Origin: Dehalococcoidia bacterium
Lineage (GTDB): Bacteria > Chloroflexota > Dehalococcoidia > Lucifugimonadales > UBA3495
Direction: 5' to 3'
DNA length: 64,000 nucleotides
Assembly: GCA_030740155.1 (NCBI GenBank)
Contig: JASLXV010000085.1
Location: 1 to 64,000, forward strand
Shown: one piece after another, positions 4,267-64,000 of the stretch
How positions within the stretch are numbered: position 1 is the first letter of the stretch
How the letters are laid out: each line of letters opens with the position of its first letter
Translations under genes and position numbers: made by a program
Notes under the pieces: generated by a model
The model's database searches: none
What the model was told of the DNA's origin: nothing
What the model saw: only the letters and a program-made list of their open reading frames with translations

Positions 4267-7044
4267 ATGGCCTCAGGAATCCGAAACAAGACTCTCCCTC
4301 TCTTCGACCGTTTGGGAGCCCCGCTGCTGCTGCTGATGGACGGGCACGCCATGGTGCACCGCTCCTTTCGCGCTATCTCGGTGCAGGGCCACCTTTCCGT
4401 TTCGTCGACTGGCGAAGTTATCACCGGGGTCTTCGGATTTGCCAACGTCTTCCTGCGGGCCATTCAGGAGTGGAACCCCACCTACTGCGCCATCGCTTTC
4501 GACATGCCGGCACCCACTTTCCGGCACCAGCGGTTCGAGCAGTACAAGGCTCAACGGGCGGAACCGCCTCCCGAGTTGCTCGCCCAGTTCCCGCGGGTCA
4601 AGCAATTGATGCAGGCCTTTGGGGTCCCCATCTTCGAGTTGGAAGGGTGGGAGGCCGACGACGCTATCGGCAGCATCTGCCGCCAAGCCGAAGACCAGGG
4701 CGTCGACACAGTGATCCTGACTGGAGACCGGGATACCTTCCAGCTGATTTCTCCGAGGGTGCGGGTGGACATGTTCCACAGCATCCAAGGCCGTAAGGTG
4801 TACGACGAAGCGGAATTGGAGGCCCGTTACTTCGGGCTTACCGCGGCCCAGCAGCCGGACTTCAAAGCCCTGATGGGTGATGCCTCGGACAACATACCCG
4901 GGGTTCCTCGCGTCGGTGAAAAGCGGGCCATCGGCCTGCTCACGGAGTTCCATGATCTCGAAGGCATCTTCGAGCACCTGGAAGACGTGAAGCCGCCCAG
5001 CGTCAAGGAATCACTGGCCCAGAACCGGGAACGCGCTTTCGATAACCGGATACTCACCACCATAGACCGGGAAGCCCCCGTGGAGTTGAGCCTGGAGAAT
5101 TGCCGGTGGGGCGAGTTTGATCGCCAAGTGGTGGTCGACCTGCTGACCGAGCTTGAGTTCTACAGCGTCATCCAGCGCATACCGGCCCCCCGGTCGGCGG
5201 GTCCCCTATTCGAACCGGGTGTCCCGGAGGTGGTCTCGCCAGCGCCGTCCGATGCCGACTATCAGGCGGTTCAGACCGGCGACCAGTTGGAGGCAATGCT
5301 GGAGGCCCTCCAAAAAACGGGCAGCTTCGCTTTCGACACCGAGACCACCTGCTTGGACCCGATGCAGGCGGACCTGGTAGGCCTCAGCTTCGCCACGGCG
5401 CCGGGCAAGTCTTGGTATGTGCCCGTGGGTCACCGGGAGGGAGTCCAGCTACCCTTGGAAACGGTGCTGGCCCGTGTCAGACCCCTGTTCGAGTCGCCCA
5501 GCCTGGGCAAATGCGCCCACAACGCAAATTTCGATTTGATGGTCCTCGCCAACCACGGCATCCACTGCCGCGGCGTCGACTTCGACACCATGATCGCCGC
5601 CCACCTTCTGTGTAAGGGTTCGCTGGGACTGAAAAACCTGGCCCTGGACGTGCTGGGCCGGGAGATGACACCCATAACCAAACTTCTCGGCACCGGGCGC
5701 AAACAGATCACCTTCGACCAGGTCCCCATCGAATCGGCGCTGAATTATGCGGCCGCCGATGCGGACATGACCTGGCGGCTCCGCGAAGCCCTTGAGGGTC
5801 CACTGGCCGACCTTGGCCTGACCCATTTGATGACCGACCTTGAGCTGCCCCTGGTGCCGGTGCTGGTCACCATGCAGCGCCACGGCATCAAACTGGATGC
5901 CGGAATCCTCCACGAGATGTCCCGGGACCTGAATCAGCATCTGCAGCAGACCGAGGTGGAGCTGTACCAGAGCGTGGGCCACACGGTCAACATCAACTCC
6001 CCCCTTCAGCTAAGCGACCTGCTGTTCAAAGAGTTGGGCCTGCCCCGGACCCGGCGCACCAAGACCGGCTACTCGACCGACGCCAGCTCCCTTGAGACCC
6101 TCAAAGGGTTTCACCCGGTGGTGGACCAGATACTGGAGTACCGGCAGGTCTCCAAGCTCAAGTCCACCTACGTGGACGCGTTGCCGGAGATGATAAACCC
6201 CAACACTGGGCGGGTCCACACCAGCTACAACCAGACGGGCTCCGCCACGGGGCGCATGTCCAGCAGCGACCCCAACCTGCAAAACATCCCCATCCGCACC
6301 GAGCTGGGACGCCAGGTCCGAAAGGCTTTCGTTGCCGATGGTGCGCCCAATTGGCTCCTCTTCTCCGCCGACTACTCCCAGATCGAGTTGCGGGTACTGG
6401 CTCATCTGTCCCAAGACGCGGGGCTGCTCGACGCCTTTCGCCGGGGCGAGGACATCCACTCCTCCACCGCGTCCCTGATGTTCGACGCGCCCATCGGCGA
6501 GGTGACGCCGGACCAGCGGCGCATCGCCAAGATACTGAATTTCGGCGTGATCTACGGCATCTCCCCCCACGGAATAGCCCAGCAGACGGAGTTCAGCCGG
6601 GAAGATGGCGCCCGGTTCATCGAGAGCTACTTCGCCAAATACCCTGGAATCAACGAGTACATGGAGGGCGTAAAAGCCGGCGCTCGGAAGACCCAGTACG
6701 TGGAGACCATGATGGGCCGCCGGCGCTTTGTCCCGGAGGTCACTTCCTCCAACTTCAACGTCCGCAACGGCGCGGAGCGGGCGGCGATCAACATGCCCGT
6801 CCAGGGCACCGCCGCCGACATCATGAAACTGGCCATGATACGGGTCCAGGACCGTTTGGACCGGGAAGCCCTGCGGTCCAAAATGCTGCTGCAAGTCCAC
6901 GACGAGTTGGTCTTCGAGGTTCCCAAGGACGAGTTGGAGGCCATCAAGGAGTTGGTCTTCGACGAAATGCCTGCCGCCATGGAACTCGACGTAACCCTCA
7001 AGGTGGACGCCAAGTGGGGCCCCACCTGGGGCGATATGGAGTAG
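4267..7044 (+). CDS. polA: DNA polymerase I
   Basis: 5'-3' exonuclease (EADD, GDASDNIPGV), 3'-5' exonuclease (FDTETT), polymerase motifs DYSQIELR, NFGVIYG, QVHDEL; TATAAT at 4204 supports the 4267 start. Confidence 0.98.
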   Translation: MASGIRNKTLPLFDRLGAPLLLLMDGHAMVHRSFRAISVQGHLSVSSTGEVITGVFGFANVFLRAIQEWNPTYCAIAFDMPAPTFRHQRFEQYKAQRAEPPPELLAQFPRVKQLMQAFGVPIFELEGWEADDAIGSICRQAEDQGVDTVILTGDRDTFQLISPRVRVDMFHSIQGRKVYDEAELEARYFGLTAAQQPDFKALMGDASDNIPGVPRVGEKRAIGLLTEFHDLEGIFEHLEDVKPPSVKESLAQNRERAFDNRILTTIDREAPVELSLENCRWGEFDRQVVVDLLTELEFYSVIQRIPAPRSAGPLFEPGVPEVVSPAPSDADYQAVQTGDQLEAMLEALQKTGSFAFDTETTCLDPMQADLVGLSFATAPGKSWYVPVGHREGVQLPLETVLARVRPLFESPSLGKCAHNANFDLMVLANHGIHCRGVDFDTMIAAHLLCKGSLGLKNLALDVLGREMTPITKLLGTGRKQITFDQVPIESALNYAAADADMTWRLREALEGPLADLGLTHLMTDLELPLVPVLVTMQRHGIKLDAGILHEMSRDLNQHLQQTEVELYQSVGHTVNINSPLQLSDLLFKELGLPRTRRTKTGYSTDASSLETLKGFHPVVDQILEYRQVSKLKSTYVDALPEMINPNTGRVHTSYNQTGSATGRMSSSDPNLQNIPIRTELGRQVRKAFVADGAPNWLLFSADYSQIELRVLAHLSQDAGLLDAFRRGEDIHSSTASLMFDAPIGEVTPDQRRIAKILNFGVIYGISPHGIAQQTEFSREDGARFIESYFAKYPGINEYMEGVKAGARKTQYVETMMGRRRFVPEVTSSNFNVRNGAERAAINMPVQGTAADIMKLAMIRVQDRLDREALRSKMLLQVHDELVFEVPKDELEAIKELVFDEMPAAMELDVTLKVDAKWGPTWGDME

Positions 7045-56626: not shown

Positions 56627-58051
56627 ATGACAACTGGCGACAACAAGGTCAGAATAGAGCGAGACTCCATGGGACCCATGGAAGTCCCCGCCGGCGCTCT
56701 CTACGGCGCCTCCACCATGCGCGCGGTGCTGAACTTTCCTATCAGCGACCTGCGCTTTCCCCGGTCTTTCATCCGTTCCTTGGGTCTCGTGAAGCTGGCG
56801 GCGGCCAAGACCAACATGGCCCTGGGTCTCCTGGCGGTGAAAGAGGGCAACGCCGTGGTGGCCGCCGCCCAAGAGGTGGCCGACGGAAAACTGGACGAGC
56901 ACTTCGTCCTGGATGTTTTTCAGACCGGCTCCGGCACCTCCACCAATACCAACGCCAATGAGGTCATCGCCAATCGGGCGTCCCAGATACTAGGTGGCGA
57001 CCTCGGGTCCGGCCTGGTCCACCCCAACGACCACGTCAACATGGGTCAGTCGTCCAACGACGTTATTCCCACCTGCATCCACCTGGCGGCGCTGATGGCC
57101 GCCACGGAGGACCTGGTCCCCGCTTTGGAGAAGCTTGAGGGAGCGCTTCGGAAAAAATCCGAGGAATTGTGGCTCGTCATAAAAACCGGCCGCACCCACC
57201 TCCAGGACGCAACCCCGGTGCGGCTGGGCCAGGAGTTTCTGGGCTTCGCCGGCCAGGCTGGATACAGCATTCAACGTCTGGGCAGAATGACGGATGCCCT
57301 GGCCGAGGTGGCACTGGGCGGCACCGCCGTGGGCACCGGGGTCAACACCCACCCGGAGTTTTCCGCCCGCACCTGCCGGCTCCTGTCCGAGATTACCGGA
57401 GTCCAAGTCCGAGAGACGGACAATCACTTCCAGGCTCAGGCAGCCCTGGACGGCGTGGTGGAGGCCAGCGGCATCCTCAAGACCATCGCCATCAGCCTGC
57501 ACAAGATGGCCAACGACATCCGCTTCCTGGCCTGCGGCCCCCGCGCCGGGCTCGGTGAGATACTGGTGCCTGAAGTGCAGCCGGGCAGCTCCATCATGCC
57601 GGGCAAGGTCAACCCGGTGATCTCGGAGTCGGTGATCCAGGTGGTGGCCCAGGTGGTCGGCAACGATGCCACGGTAACCCTGGCCGGCCAAGGTGGCTAC
57701 TTCGAGCTGAACACCATGATGCCGGTGGCCGCCTACAACATACTGCAATCGATCTCCCTGTTGGCGGCGTCCGCCGACAATTTTGCCGAACAGTGCGTCA
57801 AGGGCATCCAGGCCACTGAGACAGGGCCCCAGATGGTGGAAAAGGGACTAATGCTCGGTACCGCGCTGACTCCGGCCATCGGCTACGACGCCGCGGCCAC
57901 CATCGCCAAAGAGGCAGCCGCGACCGGCAGCACGATCCGTGAGATGGCCAAACTCAAGACCAGCCTGTCCGACGCCGAGCTGGACAATCTGCTGAACCCC
58001 GCGGCCATGACCGAGCCGGGCCTGGGGTCCGGCGTTGGTGGCGGGGGCTAG
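56627..58051 (+). CDS. fumC: class II fumarate hydratase
   Basis: FQTGSGTS.N.N.NEV, HPNDHVN, KTGRTHLQDA, GSSIMPGKVNP, GYFELN. Confidence 0.93.
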   Translation: MTTGDNKVRIERDSMGPMEVPAGALYGASTMRAVLNFPISDLRFPRSFIRSLGLVKLAAAKTNMALGLLAVKEGNAVVAAAQEVADGKLDEHFVLDVFQTGSGTSTNTNANEVIANRASQILGGDLGSGLVHPNDHVNMGQSSNDVIPTCIHLAALMAATEDLVPALEKLEGALRKKSEELWLVIKTGRTHLQDATPVRLGQEFLGFAGQAGYSIQRLGRMTDALAEVALGGTAVGTGVNTHPEFSARTCRLLSEITGVQVRETDNHFQAQAALDGVVEASGILKTIAISLHKMANDIRFLACGPRAGLGEILVPEVQPGSSIMPGKVNPVISESVIQVVAQVVGNDATVTLAGQGGYFELNTMMPVAAYNILQSISLLAASADNFAEQCVKGIQATETGPQMVEKGLMLGTALTPAIGYDAAATIAKEAAATGSTIREMAKLKTSLSDAELDNLLNPAAMTEPGLGSGVGGGG

Positions 58052-58214
58052 ACCCTCCTCCGGCCGGACCCGCAGCACGGCCAATCCGATTACCGGAAGG
58101 GCGGCCCTGGCCTCCCGATCCTGGCCCATGCCGGGAAATGTCTGGGACCCTGCCGGGAACTTTCCGGCGACGCCGGGCGTCTTTGATGGAAAGATTAAAG
58201 ACAGAGGTGGCCCC

Positions 58215-59402
58215 ATGATGAAGCTAATCGTTTTTCTCACATTGGCCGTATCGATCTTCCTGATGGCGTGCTCGGCGGGGGACGACCCACAAGCATCTGT
58301 TGGGTCGTTCGGGGAAGACTCCGCCGAGAACAAAGGAGGCGCTCGGGACGCCGACATGGCACTCCTTTCGGTGGCTTCGGCGCCCACGGCAGCGCCCGCG
58401 GCCACGGCGGCGCCCGGCGCTTCATTCGCTGCCCTGGCCGCGGGGGATGGCCGGGTATCCGGCGCCGCCCTGGAAACCGCCCAGAGGATGGTCATCTCGA
58501 CGGCTTCTATTTCCATCGAGGTGGAGATGGTGCAAACCGCCATCGCCGAGGTGCGGGCCATCGCCGAGAGCCTTGGGGGGTTCGTGGAGCATCTGGACAG
58601 CTCCGGAGGGCCGGAGCGCCAGCGGGCCTCCATGACCGTTCGCGTTCCTCAGGCCCAGTTTGAAACCGCGCTGGGGCGCATCGAAGTACTGGGCGAAGTG
58701 CAAAGCCGTAATGAGGGCGCTTAAGACGTATCGGAGCAGTTCATCGACTTGGAAGCTCGCCTGAAAAGCTCGCTGCGGGAGGAGCAGAGCCTGCTGTCTT
58801 TGCTGGGGAGAACTGGGACGGTGGGCGAAATCCTGACCATAGAACGGGAGTTGGCCAGGGTCCGGTCTGAGATCGAGCGATTCCAGGGCCAGCTCAATTT
58901 CCTGGAAAGGCGAGTGGACCTGGCTACCATATCAGTGTCGCTCTTCCCTCCGGATGAGGAAGTCTCCGAGGCTCCCTCGGCTGCCCTGGTGATCCGGGTA
59001 TCGGATGTCGGCGCCGCCGTGGCGGAGGTCAAAGGCCTGATCGGCACCTATGAAGGAGTCGTGGAACGCGTCTTCCTGTCGCAGCGAAATGACCAGGAGG
59101 AGGCGACCCTCTCCCTCAAGGTGTTTGCCGGCGAGTTCCCGCAGGTAATGGACCTACTGGAAGCGCAGGGCGAGGTGAAGAGCAAGGAAGTGCAGGAGGG
59201 CAGAGTCCCGCCGGGCGGGACGCCAGAGCGTGCCAAGAAGCCCGACGCCAGGATAGACCTCTCTCTGGTTGAAAAGGATGAAGACTCGAACGACGCCCTG
59301 ATAGTGATAATCATCGCGGCTATCGGCGGGGTTTGGCTGATAGCAATTCTGGGGGCCCTGGTCTTCTTGGGCAGCCGCGCGGCGCGACGCCGAGGAAACT
59401 GA
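58215..59402 (+). pseudogene. DUF4349-domain lipoprotein interrupted by an in-frame TAA
   Basis: lipobox LMAC; TVRVP; NEGA*DVSEQFIDLEARL with both ORF halves in the same frame; C-terminal TM helix. Confidence 0.82.
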
Positions 59403-59684: not shown

Positions 59685-61385
59685 CTATTGAGGCCCGGTC
59701 CCGTTATGCTGCAGCGGGTTTTCCATGGTATCGCCCAAACCGCCGCCCGGCCGTACCATTGGGTACACGTTGGCCGAGCCGTCGACGACGAATTCGATGA
59801 GGAAGGGGCCTTCGTGGGCTTGGGCCTGGCGGAGGGCAGGGAGGACATCCTCCTGCTCGTTTACGCGCACCGCGGGTACGCCGTAGGCCTCGGCCAGCTT
59901 GACATAATCGGGGCCGGTCAGTTCGGTCGCCTTGATATGCTTTTGAAAGAACAGCTCCTGCCACTGGCGGACCATTCCCAGGGACCCGTTATTGAACAAC
60001 GCGATCTTGATCGGCAGATTCGCCTCGGTCGCCGTCGCCAGCTCTTGCGAGGTCATCTGAAACCCGCCATCGCCGGCGATACTCCAGACCGGCGCGCCGG
60101 GCCGGCCCGCTTGAGCGCCCAGGGCCGCCGGCAACTCGAATCCCATGGTGCCCTGGCCGCCCGAAGAGACGAAGGTGTTGGACTGATTGAAGTAGAGGAA
60201 CTGGGCGGCCCACATCTGATGCTGGCCCACGCCGGTTACCACGACGGTCTCCGGGTTCTCCTGAAGGAGTTCGTTCAAGCTGGCCAGCACCTGCTGGGGT
60301 TGCAGGGTATCGGACTGGGGGATGGCCAGGCATGGATGATGGACCCTCTCGCCGTCGATGAAGTCCATCCACTCCTGCCGCTTGGCGTAGGTCACCAGGG
60401 GCAGCAGCTCCCGAAGCACCCCTTTGGCGTCGCCGACCAGAGGCACCTCCACCGGGACGTTCCGGCCGATTTGAGATGCTTCGATATCCAGGTGAATGAT
60501 CCGGGCGTGGGGCGCGAAGGTGGAGGCCTTGCCGGTGACCCGGTCGTCGAAGCGCATCCCCAGGCCGACGATGAGGTCGGCCCGGTCCACCGCCATATTT
60601 GCCCAGTACATGCCGTGCATCCCCAGCATTCCCAGGCTCAAGGGATGATTTCCCGGGAAGCCGCCGAGGCCGAGAAGGGTGGTGATGACCGGGATGCCCG
60701 TGGTCTCCGCTAGGGCCTTGACCTCTTGGGAGGCGCCGGAAGCCATGACGCCGTGTCCGCTGATGATGAGGGGCCGTTGGGCCTCGTTGATCAGCCGTGC
60801 CGCCCGCTGCACCGCCTCGAAGGTCTCCGGGGACAGGGAAGAAGAAGCCGGCTCGGCGACCTCGGGGAACTCCAACTCGGCTTCTTCAAGTTGAACATCC
60901 CGCGGTACATCGATCAACACGGGCCCCGGCCGTCCCTCCATCGCGGTGGCGAACGCCTCACGGATGGTGGGCGCCAGGTCTTGGGTGGACAGCACCATGT
61001 AGCTCTTCTTGGTGCACGAAGCGGTGATCGAGCAGATGTCGCATTCCTGGAACGCCTCTGATCCCAGCGAAGTCCGGGCCACCTGGCCGGTGATGACCAC
61101 CATGGGTATCGAGTCGGCTTTGGCACTCATGATCCCGGTGACCAGGTTGGTGCCGCCGGGGCCGGAGGTGGCCATGCAAACGCCCACCTTGCCGGTCACG
61201 CGGGAGTAGCCGTCGGCGGCGTGGGCCGCGGCCTGTTCGTGACGAACCAGGATGTGCCGCAGCTGGGGATAACTCCAGAGGGCGTCGTAAAGGGGAAGGA
61301 TAGCCCCTCCGGGATACCCGAAAACGACTTCAACGCCTTCCCGAAGAAGGCTCTCGCAGATGATTTCCGAACCTTTTAGTTTCAA
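59685..61385 (-). CDS. ilvB: acetolactate synthase large subunit
   Basis: FGYPGGAILP, RHEQ, TSGPG, EAFQE.D, GMLGMHG, RFDDRVTG, VGQHQMW, GDGGFQMT, GMVRQWQ. Confidence 0.96.
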   Translation of the reverse strand: MKLKGSEIICESLLREGVEVVFGYPGGAILPLYDALWSYPQLRHILVRHEQAAAHAADGYSRVTGKVGVCMATSGPGGTNLVTGIMSAKADSIPMVVITGQVARTSLGSEAFQECDICSITASCTKKSYMVLSTQDLAPTIREAFATAMEGRPGPVLIDVPRDVQLEEAELEFPEVAEPASSSLSPETFEAVQRAARLINEAQRPLIISGHGVMASGASQEVKALAETTGIPVITTLLGLGGFPGNHPLSLGMLGMHGMYWANMAVDRADLIVGLGMRFDDRVTGKASTFAPHARIIHLDIEASQIGRNVPVEVPLVGDAKGVLRELLPLVTYAKRQEWMDFIDGERVHHPCLAIPQSDTLQPQQVLASLNELLQENPETVVVTGVGQHQMWAAQFLYFNQSNTFVSSGGQGTMGFELPAALGAQAGRPGAPVWSIAGDGGFQMTSQELATATEANLPIKIALFNNGSLGMVRQWQELFFQKHIKATELTGPDYVKLAEAYGVPAVRVNEQEDVLPALRQAQAHEGPFLIEFVVDGSANVYPMVRPGGGLGDTMENPLQHNGTGPQ

Positions 61386-61407: not shown

Positions 61408-61440
61408 CAAAAAAACCCGCCCCCTATAGGGACGGGATTT
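61408..61440 (-). terminator. intrinsic terminator of the T-box leader
   Basis: CCCGUCCC-loop-GGGGCGGG followed by U7. Confidence 0.85.
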
Positions 61441-61683
61441 CTAAGCTCCCGCGGTACCACCCTATTTGCCCCGACATAGTCGAGACCTCTCAGTGAGGAC
61501 ACTAACATGCCCCGCCATCTCTAACGGGCGGCGACCCCGGCTCAGCTTACCTGCCTTTCCAGTTCAGGAAGGCCTCAGCTGGCGGCTCCGGAGGGATTTT
61601 CGAATAAGCTCGGCACACCTGCTCACACCGCACCAGGCTCGCTTTGCGCCTACCCTTATCTACTCGTCTCCATCACAGCTTCT
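61408..61683 (-). promoter_or_regulatory. T-box riboswitch, probable Ile (AUC) specifier
   Basis: GA motif UGUGAU, AGUA, specifier loop GAA-A-AUC-C (61597-61595), T-box AGGGUGGUACCGCG (61463-61450), terminator. Confidence 0.93.
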
Positions 61684-61691
61684 AACTGCGT

Positions 61692-61721
61692 AAAGTACCA
61701 CAAATAGTGCCTAGCTGTCAA
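61692..61721 (-). promoter_or_regulatory. putative sigma70 promoter for T-box/ilvB
   Basis: TTGACA-N18-TACTTT with TGn extension. Confidence 0.65.
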
Positions 61722-62796
61722 TACGGGCTACTTGCGGGCTCGCCTCAATCCTGCCCCGCGTGTCCCTGCCGGTCAGACGCTCTCGGACGTGCCGGACCGC
61801 ACTGCTATACCCATCCACCAGTGGCGTCCCTGACCCCTGCGGCGACGGCGGAAACCAAGACCGGTAAGGGCCCAAGCCAAAATTTCGTTGGCGCCACGGT
61901 TTTGCCCGGTTCTCATCGCACCATCTGAGATACGCAACGTAGAGGTCTCTAGCGGGCGCAGCCTGATCGGAGGATACGAGGCACGCCTCCGCTACGAACC
62001 GATTCAGCGAATTGGCCTCCGGCGGGCCGGTGACAGGGGTGCCGCCATCCGCATCCTCTGGTGTGTCCTCTCCCAGGCCGGGAGGCGGACCGGAATCCTC
62101 TTCCTCCAGGGGGGTTACCCTGCGCCTGCCTCCCACGGTGGTGCCCCGTTGGCCATCGAAGAGCTTGCGGCCGCGGGCCACGTTGATACCCGGTGAACGG
62201 GTCGCCGGTTCCCGGGCCTGATCCGAAGATTCTTGGGGCGCCTCTTCCCCAGTACGGAGCATCCAGGCGTTCTCGGTAGCCGGGTCGGTTAGCCAGTTCT
62301 TCACCACCCGTTGGAAATTGCCGGGGATCTCAACCCCCAAACTGCTGGCGACGCGGTTCATGAAGTTGAACAAACAGGTAACCAGGACGATGGAAAGGAT
62401 ATCCTGCTCGAGGAAGCCCGCGTCCCGCAGCCCATCAAGGACGCCCTCGGTCATGGAGGCCGGCTCCACGGTTACCTTCAGCGCGAAGTCCAGCATCTTG
62501 AGGTCTGGCGCGGACAGTTCCGCCTGAGTGTAGTCGGAGAGCAATTGGCTGGCCAGGCCCGAGTCGCCGGAGTGGCGGCGCACGAATCCTCCGTGGGTCA
62601 AGGCCCCGTACCGGCACTGGTTGGCTACTGCCACTACGGTGGCGATAGCCTCCTCTTGAACTCGGCTCAAGGTCGAACCGCCGAAGGCGAGGGTCTCGTT
62701 CAGCCCTTTGACCGCCTCCAACGCCTCGGGGTTCAACGACAGCGCCTGGAAAATCGCGGGCAAGTCTGGCAGGTTTGCTTCTTCAATCCATGACAT
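61711..62796 (-). CDS. AhpD/CMD-like domain fused to a winged-helix domain; apparent frameshift near 61871, alternative stop at 61773
   Basis: LSRVQEEAIATVVAVANQCRYGALTH, FALKVT.EP, FNFMNRVA..LG; C-terminal RFVAEAC...ARDLYVAYLRWCDEN...QRNFG. Confidence 0.85.
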   Translation of the reverse strand: MSWIEEANLPDLPAIFQALSLNPEALEAVKGLNETLAFGGSTLSRVQEEAIATVVAVANQCRYGALTHGGFVRRHSGDSGLASQLLSDYTQAELSAPDLKMLDFALKVTVEPASMTEGVLDGLRDAGFLEQDILSIVLVTCLFNFMNRVASSLGVEIPGNFQRVVKNWLTDPATENAWMLRTGEEAPQESSDQAREPATRSPGINVARGRKLFDGQRGTTVGGRRRVTPLEEEDSGPPPGLGEDTPEDADGGTPVTGPPEANSLNRFVAEACLVSSDQAAPARDLYVAYLRWCDENRAKPWRQRNFGLGPYRSWFPPSPQGSGTPLVDGYSSAVRHVRERLTGRDTRGRIEASPQVARIDS

Positions 62797-62927
62797 ATAA
62801 CTGCCTATCGACGAAAACTACCTCTCTAATCCACTCTCCGCCACCGGACTGGAATTTGTCAAGGGTATACGCTGATTCACCCGATTCCCCGATTCGAGTG
62901 TGGTAGTATGGTTCGTGGAGGAAGAAG

Positions 62928-63615: not shown

Positions 63616-64000
63616 CTAGCCCAGGGGCAGGCTGGGGTCGATGTCCAACTCCATGCCGGACTGCTCTCCCCTCTGATTCATGAAATAGGCGCACGCCGCG
63701 ATCATCGCCCCGTTATCGGTACACAAGACCGGAGGAGGAACGATGACCGGCAAGGGGGAGCGGCGGGTTATTTCCTGACGCAGCCTGGAGTTGGCCGCGA
63801 CGCCTCCACCCAGGATGAGGCCACGAGCCCCATACTTTTTGGCCATGTCCAGCAGCTTGGCCGTCATCACTTCTACCAACGACTCCTGGAAGGCGGCGGC
63901 CAACTCTCGGACCAGGCTGGTGGTGCCGGCCTGGTCCAGGGCCCCACCCCCCGGCGGATAAACCCCTTTGGCCTGGGCCAGGTGCAATAGGGCCGTCTTC
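63616..64000 (-). CDS. tsaD: tRNA threonylcarbamoyltransferase (C-terminal part; start outside window)
   Basis: LAAAFQE, GGGVAANSRLR, LCTDNGAMIA. Confidence 0.93.
   Translation of the reverse strand, partial: KTALLHLAQAKGVYPPGGGALDQAGTTSLVRELAAAFQESLVEVMTAKLLDMAKKYGARGLILGGGVAANSRLRQEITRRSPLPVIVPPPVLCTDNGAMIAACAYFMNQRGEQSGMELDIDPSLPLG

Follow-up and report, generated by a model that had tools for sequence, protein, structure and literature searches.

The 64,000-nucleotide stretch of Dehalococcoidia DNA analysed here (hereafter the window) encodes a protein in which an AhpD-like domain with an altered catalytic dyad is joined, through a linker predicted to be disordered, to a predicted RFX/P4-type winged helix (Table 1). 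The fusion is real, conserved and not a product of chance, and it represents a new domain combination with a traceable history. We tentatively read it, at slightly less than even chances, as a one-component DNA-binding regulator whose AhpD-like domain serves as an oligomer or ligand-pocket module and not as a peroxidase.

A preliminary description of the locus had assigned the N-terminal ~180 residues to a peroxidase-related CMD domain, and HMM searches agree: TIGR01926 (peroxidase-related enzyme) matches residues 12 to 155 with 110.9 bits, above the curated cut-off of 81.8, and the domain scores at the Pfam CMD family cut-off. The dyad motif reads C61-R-Y-G64, with GGG as codon 64 (62607-62605), exactly as claimed there, and the acidic, proline-rich linker followed by the RFVAEAC/RNFG tail is likewise present in the ORF. 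The end given for the ORF, 61773, belongs to another reading frame, which terminates there. Linkers across the fusion family span 41 to 237 residues and are rich in E, P, A, G, S and D. Against Pfam Pox_D5 (cut-off 21.4 bits), the tail of the window allele scores 19.5 bits (E 0.0013), that of the intact allele 21.2 and that of the homolog P0034 32.1; TIGR01613 matches the fusion tail at E 5e-4. Pfam RFX_DNA_binding stays below its cut-off of 27 on the fusion tails (12.4-17.3 bits), a point of difference from eukaryotic RFX factors.

Table 1. Features of the fusion gene and its surroundings, in window coordinates
Feature	Coordinates	Strand	Basis or remark
Fusion ORF, window reading, 361 aa (frameshift allele)	61711..62796	-	ORF translation
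Intact allele of the fusion ORF, 340 aa	stop codon at 61775-61773	-	
AhpD-like / TIGR01926 peroxidase-related domain, aa 1-180	62257..62796	-	HMM and model of relative P0005
Active-site helix pair: E49, C61, Y63, G64, H68	62593..62652	-	G64 is Sec in paralogs
Decayed counterpart of the SECIS-like hairpin (codons 68-73 in Sec paralogs)	62578..62595	-	folding of the window gene
Linker, predicted disordered, acidic/Pro/Gly, aa 181-260	62017..62256	-	41-237 aa in homologs
Winged helix, part with helices 1-3, aa 261-308	61873..62016	-	HMM and model of relative
G run carrying an extra base; the resulting frameshift is polymorphic and removes the wing	61871..61873	-	
Arg-rich wing hairpin of the winged helix, +1 frame in window allele	61773..61871	-	
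T-box leader between fusion gene and ilvB	61425..61685	-	99.1 bits, gathering score 93
ilvB, acetolactate synthase large subunit, syntenic neighbour	59685..61385	-	
TTGACA motif, likely the fusion gene's -35 box	62857..62862	-	common to 8/12 upstream regions
Extended -10-like box, conserved; likely belongs to the divergent gene	62900..62909	+	7-mers in 7/12 upstream regions; shuffle maximum also 7
Divergent membrane-type ORF, 199 aa	62928..63527	+	syntenic with CxxG gene
tsaD 3' end, syntenic neighbour	63616..64000	-	

Structurally, the protein was examined through an AlphaFold model of a close intact relative (P0005, 59 sequences), the window allele itself being frameshifted. The model comprises two confident domains and a low-confidence linker. 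Its N-terminal domain matches 2pfx with Z 20.3 and 6k40 with a Foldseek E of 8e-9; 2prr ranks second in the Foldseek search, and the debrominase Bmp8 (Z 15.2) and the Sestrin structure 5cuf (Z 9.3) are also recovered. For a Bmp8-like debrominase activity, the literature gave no paper for comparing active-site residues. TIGR01926 and related AhpD-like enzymes (2pfx, 3c1l, 6k40 = DR1765, 2prr) share the fold, the relay Glu/Tyr/His and the first cysteine with the fusion at 30-37% identity. However, those enzymes possess CxxC, whereas the fusion has Gly as the second residue, a replaceable first cysteine, and the linker and winged helix in addition. Across 91 aligned rows, position 64 is occupied by Gly in 85, Asn in three, and Ser, Glu and Ala in one each, and never by Cys, while E49 and H68 are each found in 90, C61 in 85 and Y63 in 79 (Phe in 12); N144, F145, M146 and R148 are invariant in the domain.

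In mycobacterial AhpD, the second cysteine is the peroxidatic one. The relay Glu, Tyr/His and His are kept around the altered dyad of the fusion with the spacing given in PMC3141380, and positions of the E49, C61, Y63 and H68 type represent four of the five relay residues named there. The same paper (section 9) describes AhpD-like proteins as dimers, trimers or hexamers. Sestrin2, according to PMC4674687, possesses only the first cysteine plus the relay (His113, Cys125, Tyr127, Leu128, His132), and is active and forms a sulfenic acid. E49, C61, Y63, G64 and H68 have the same spacing as this site, so the CxxG site need not be dead, which weakens the earlier premise that loss of the second cysteine disables catalysis. 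Sestrins likewise employ an AhpD-like domain with only the first cysteine and relay residues in signalling, but they contain two such domains and a GATOR2-binding hinge (PMC11429811), where the fusion has one and a predicted DNA-binding domain. The likeness is one of analogy, not of membership.

This analogy suggests a Sestrin-like single-cysteine redox sensor, in which organic peroxides would oxidize Cys61 to a sulfenic acid, stable because no resolving Cys or Sec follows, and would thereby switch oligomer state and DNA binding. The shared residue spacing and the retention of Cys61 in most rows speak for it, as does 2prr, which PMC4674687 names (as YP_296737.1) as the nearest bacterial structure to Sestrin2. 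We nevertheless consider it unlikely. Cys61 has been replaced by Ser or Tyr seven times independently in otherwise intact proteins among 28 rows of the Gly clade (a ratio that is no frequency, as the variants were put into the tree deliberately) and never among 18 Sec rows; it is kept in 77/77 Sec paralogs. These losses weaken a required thiol switch, including the thiol-controlled DNA binding envisaged in the preliminary description, and the conserved gene neighborhood contains no oxidative-stress genes.

The losses of Cys61 count in favor of the regulator reading, in which its oxidation is optional. The ancestry of the domain likely lies in a selenium enzyme, judging from paralogous genes and their trees. 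The suggestion that some homologs carry selenocysteine at the altered position proved apt for the nearest ones: CxxU paralogs, about 48% identical and from the same bacterial family, are the closest relatives. Among 80 genome loci kept, 70 have TGA at position 64, all in stand-alone genes of 182-191 aa, and 10 have Gly. Downstream of the TGA, near-fixed codons form a SECIS-like hairpin that is complete (6/6 pairs) in 41/44 distinct Sec segments and in 0/27 non-Sec ones, by a pattern that missed the window gene, which was folded separately. Unlike these AhpD-like CxxU selenoproteins, which have an in-frame TGA and the hairpin, stand alone and occupy a different gene neighborhood, the fusion gene has GGG, a decayed stem and an extra tail. 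Since the genome itself carries selA, selB and tRNA-Sec, the loss of Sec is gene-specific. The family's CxxU selenoprotein (L041-L110, codons 64-73) is widespread, with a near-invariant hairpin, and standard gene calling cuts it at the TGA; proteins of this type are listed for marine metagenomes in PMC2398784.

In a tree of 55 rows, built with columns 61 and 64 removed and three near-duplicate or long rows dropped beforehand, the Gly clade (99/96) and the family's Sec clade (100/98) are sisters, and other Sec rows fall outside the pair. The fusions group together as a single clade (92/87, not starred) amid stand-alone Gly genes, which occupy the same locus as the fusions and branch first. This topology suggests that the change from Sec to Gly came first and the fusion to the tail later. 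Many stand-alone CxxG genes sit behind a small CMD gene, which the fusions are without; it encodes 101 aa with one Cys directly upstream of the CxxG gene, a possible partner subunit (L007:1141-1446, L039, L040, L146, L153, L155, L159, L160 and L164). Neither a close CxxU paralog nor the small CMD gene was found in the window's own genome (93.7% complete). Two stand-alone members, L252 and L253, have a motif that has decayed further, with Glu at position 64 and Arg at 68, and the winged helix is matched in 0/3 genomes of their genus.

The C-terminal domain models as an RFX/P4-type winged helix, as the preliminary description had proposed from its likeness to P4/D5 primases. In the P0005 model, where it reaches pLDDT 90-97, the best fold matches are RFX5 (Z 9.9; rmsd 2.8 over 77 aligned residues), RFX1-DNA (Z 9.1; 2.1 over 71) and the P4 origin-binding domain (Z 8.2; 2.9 over 75), the next winged helix falling to 6.4; RFX also ranks first in Foldseek (E 0.01). 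The helix-strand-helix-helix-hairpin topology of this intact relative fits RFX and the P4 domain, and the nearest outside relatives by sequence are D5/P4 primase tails. The wing residues R and W/G are invariant (59/59) across proteins merely 42-65% identical and align with the RFX1 wing (E 0.094); a WW-containing Arg wing is present in 45/45 cellular tails tested vs 4/18 primase tails. The P4/D5 primase-helicase winged helix (Pox_D5, 1ka8) and RFX domains (1dp7, 8zjr) have the topology, the QRxFG helix and the basic wing in common with the fusion tail. P4/D5 proteins, however, carry primase and SF3 helicase domains, whereas HMM searches find none in the fusion ORF or its neighborhood, and the fusion is chromosomal and vertically kept. 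The genome's one D5_N primase lies on another contig. According to PMC2777425, RFX contacts DNA mostly through helix 3 and the wing; the winged helix of the pRN1 primase binds DNA weakly (about 2 uM) and cooperatively, with no sequence specificity found. Elsewhere, the winged helix occurs outside primases with an ECF sigma factor, a ClpP-like domain and an HSDR_N + HTH protein (P0260, P0367, P0389).

The allele in the window is itself broken, as the preliminary description did not mention: it is without the basic wing. An extra base in the G run 61873-61871 shifts the frame just past the RNFG motif, which places the Arg-rich wing out of frame and extends the ORF to 61711. This frameshift is a real, natural polymorphism. 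In the 90% cluster of the window protein (13 members), nine have the 361-aa broken end, three are 340 aa long with the wing and one is partial, and the intact hairpin is present in P0112, P0115, P0120 and L142. Contigs of runs X1 and X10 that span the G run carry the extra base, although X1 may be the run from which the window itself was assembled; it is absent from run X13 and from RNA run X16 (one contig, depth 2), while RNA run X15 yielded no contig on 61600-62950. Relative to locus L142 (99.85% identity over 7,225 aligned bases), the extra base is the sole gap. The occurrence of both alleles in independent runs, the cluster counts and this alignment rule out an assembly error behind the frameshift. 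The window allele would thus not bind DNA through the proposed Arg-rich wing. In another species, three loci (L036, L148 and L152, matching at 6001, 5001 and 814) have an in-frame stop in the Pro-rich linker repeat, with the winged helix nearly intact downstream.

The fusion is not confined to one assembly, a doubt raised at the outset. A homolog search limited to proteins of 198-632 aa returned 106 proteins, comprising 12 stand-alone CxxC enzymes and 94 members of the fusion family; 68 of the latter contain both whole domains, in four the tail is partial, in 19 it is absent (contig ends and frameshifts pooled), and three are missing part or all of the N-domain. A tail that failed to model as a winged helix and a fusion unique to this assembly had been named beforehand as refuting the idea; the model and this conservation mean that neither came true. 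Named relatives are Dehalococcoidia, Chloroflexota or SAR202 MAGs, and 14/14 DNA runs containing the window stretch are marine. Among 301 genomes drawn from the phylum, no match exceeds 41% identity, the own genome aside. Within the bacterial family, the gene occurs patchily, in about 18 of 121 genomes: 16 have a full-length, stop-free match and two more have split pieces. The full-length matches correspond to six intact fusions, three broken ones, one cut by a contig end and six stand-alone CxxG genes, so that the tail is broken in 3/10 fusion loci. Together with the frameshift in 9/13 cluster members and the stop in another species, this indicates that the tail is often dispensable. For pairs of 13 fused genes with usable dS (pairs that are non-independent), dN/dS is 0.09-0.30 in the AhpD domain, 0.16-0.59 in the winged helix and 0.34-1.14 in the linker, ratios that place both domains under purifying selection.

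Genomic neighborhood analysis places the CxxG genes, in this single SAR202-type family of Dehalococcoidia, at one fixed chromosomal locus, with tilS, a histidine phosphatase, a CNNM/CBS protein, tsaD and a divergent ORF, then the T-box and ilvB; no phage genes occur in this conserved housekeeping neighborhood. The divergent ORF adjoins 30/42 Gly loci (duplicates and short contigs counted) and 0/24 Sec loci. A branched-chain amino acid link through ilvB and the T-box, prompted by leucine sensing in Sestrin, was considered and dropped because the whole block is syntenic and the T-box leader has its own promoter-like TTGACA; the specifier loop of that leader appears to be AUC (Ile), read off the alignment. 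Short RNA contigs cover the fusion ORF in four runs from three studies, a weak, unstranded signal from runs found with the window stretch. The search for an operator in 12 upstream regions returned, as shared 6-7-mers, promoter-like boxes only, at shuffle level. At its threshold, the promoter scan called no site, not even the TTGACA of Table 1; no operator was found as a genome-wide palindrome, and RFX X-box half-site dyads are at expectation in the genome. Strong spaced palindromes in genome G000 (TTCCG-N8, GTTCG-N12, GTGGT-N11; 67-100 copies vs 4-7 expected) are probably repeat elements. The divergent intergenic region contains three short direct GAATC-led repeats (62873-62895, minus strand), single-copy in the nearest relative L143. 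Further along the block, a DUF4349 lipoprotein gene is split over two frames in the window (58035-59402, plus strand) and in L142, and is whole in L031, L033 and L036-L038. A small HTH protein that resembles excisionases and carries a Cys cluster at its C-terminus (L036:11109-11633, plus strand, and syntenic loci) is conserved downstream of the ilvB/DUF4349 block in nine Gly loci.

The missing operator, the repeated tail breaks and the long, variable linker would also fit a passenger or non-specific tether, where the CxxG domain works alone as an enzyme or structural partner and a weakly selected winged helix, in the course of being lost from several lineages, anchors it to the nucleoid. Stand-alone CxxG genes, early-branching and six of the 16 full-length matches, also speak for it. 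Such a tether seems rather improbable, given that tail dN/dS lies mostly at 0.16-0.5, that the wing residues do not vary across the divergent proteins above, and that a second, near-universal protein of the family retains this wing.

This second protein (G000:C54:25898-26752 = L111:7899-8753; 284 aa, 183 homologs) ends in the same RFX-type winged helix, with an Arg wing nearly identical to that of the fusion. A profile of the winged-helix domain matches 105/121 genomes of the bacterial family, mostly once each; its best 30 loci comprise 22 second proteins and eight AhpD fusions. Across 251 genomes of the class, other matches number only 12; they are far weaker and lie mostly in long frames. 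Often the gene is followed by an MmgE/PrpD gene. Structure comparison of its N-terminal domain gives Z 7.7 to 1jog and 6of2, the sole whole-domain rows, with an atlas lead at 0.88; Foldseek returned no match at E<=0.001, no Pfam family was assigned, and the HEPN catalytic motif R-x4-6-H is found in 4/56 sequences. The domain may be a degenerate HEPN, an assignment weakly suggested by modelled structure, and the protein is possibly a family-wide regulator. PADLOC, applied to four proteins, returned no families. In a tree of tails, the fusion and HEPN-like tails group together, apart from 29/30 primase tails (99/99), and the fusion tails constitute one clade (100/99), values from 73 columns with a bootstrap that had not settled; on whether the fusion tails lie within or beside the HEPN-like ones, the latter as one clade have an AU p of 0.82. 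This grouping points to a single domestication behind both sets of tails.

Shared origin and a near-identical wing would also permit the fusion to act as a modulator, its winged helix competing or pairing with that of the HEPN-like protein and so tuning it. Each of the fusion-bearing genomes G000, G009, G022, G029, G035, G070, G076, G108 and G115 has a second winged-helix match, and, by its title, one study found the P4 origin-binding domain to be regulated through homo- and heterodimerization. The two genes are unlinked (contigs C85 and C54), however, and we regard this as a long shot. That the fusion is an assembly artefact, or the remnant of a prophage primase that happens to be in frame with an AhpD gene, is scarcely credible and largely refuted: for all that D5/P4 primase tails are the nearest non-family relatives and the window allele is frameshifted, whole fusions come from many sources, a remnant is ruled out by the fixed, phage-free locus and purifying selection, and both alleles occur in independent runs with only one indel relative to L142.

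Bacterial one-component regulators combine an input domain and a DNA-binding domain in one chain. The fusion does likewise, by homology and modelling of the intact allele, and has a divergent promoter region adjoining. As a one-component regulator, it may have arisen and may work as follows, the history being reconstructed from the trees. A CxxU selenoprotein gene would have been duplicated, with one copy losing Sec and the SECIS hairpin; this copy would have persisted on its own, encoding a CxxG protein of ~185 aa and often following the small CMD gene. On one occasion it would have acquired a winged helix, drawn from the domesticated, primase-derived stock that also supplied the second protein. 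The AhpD-like domain would self-associate like its solved relatives, so that winged helices of low affinity, contacting DNA via the Arg-rich wing, would gain avidity. DNA binding would be tuned by a ligand in the E49/Y63/H68/N144 pocket, which is retained, and oxidation of Cys61 could serve as an additional, optional signal. Since the two proteins have nearly identical wings, the sites on which the fusion acts would resemble those of the core protein. Counted against the regulator reading are the lack of an operator in the searches above, the absence of sequence specificity in the pRN1 winged helix, the frequent tail breaks, the patchy occurrence and the floppy linker, which at 41-237 disordered residues allows no rigid allosteric coupling.

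No description of an AhpD input or an RFX/D5-type output in one-component regulators was found in the literature searched, nor of an AhpD-winged-helix fusion or a chromosomal RFX-type domain in SAR202; the search was mostly of sources other than subscription journals and supplements, where domain-architecture tables may list it. If the regulator reading is true, bacterial one-component regulation would gain both a new input domain, AhpD, and a new output domain, the RFX/D5 winged helix. The lineage would also offer a datable case in which a selenoenzyme became a pseudoenzyme, going from Sec to Gly, through SECIS decay, to the fusion. It would provide a bacterial counterpart to the Sestrin story and, in parallel to RFX, an instance of host regulation recruiting a replication domain from a mobile element. 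The intact and wing-less alleles, the stand-alone CxxG forms and the C61S variants are ready-made natural controls, and the near-universal second protein may be a more important target than the fusion. More broadly, it is possible, if doubtful, that this SAR202-type family domesticated a primase origin-binding winged helix as a family-wide, sequence-specific transcription-factor domain, driven by a degenerate HEPN in a near-universal regulator and, at the same sites, by a de-selenized, Sestrin-like AhpD domain in an accessory one. If so, these abundant and poorly understood ocean bacteria would hold a bacterial parallel to eukaryotic RFX, in which two dead or repurposed enzymes serve as sensors.
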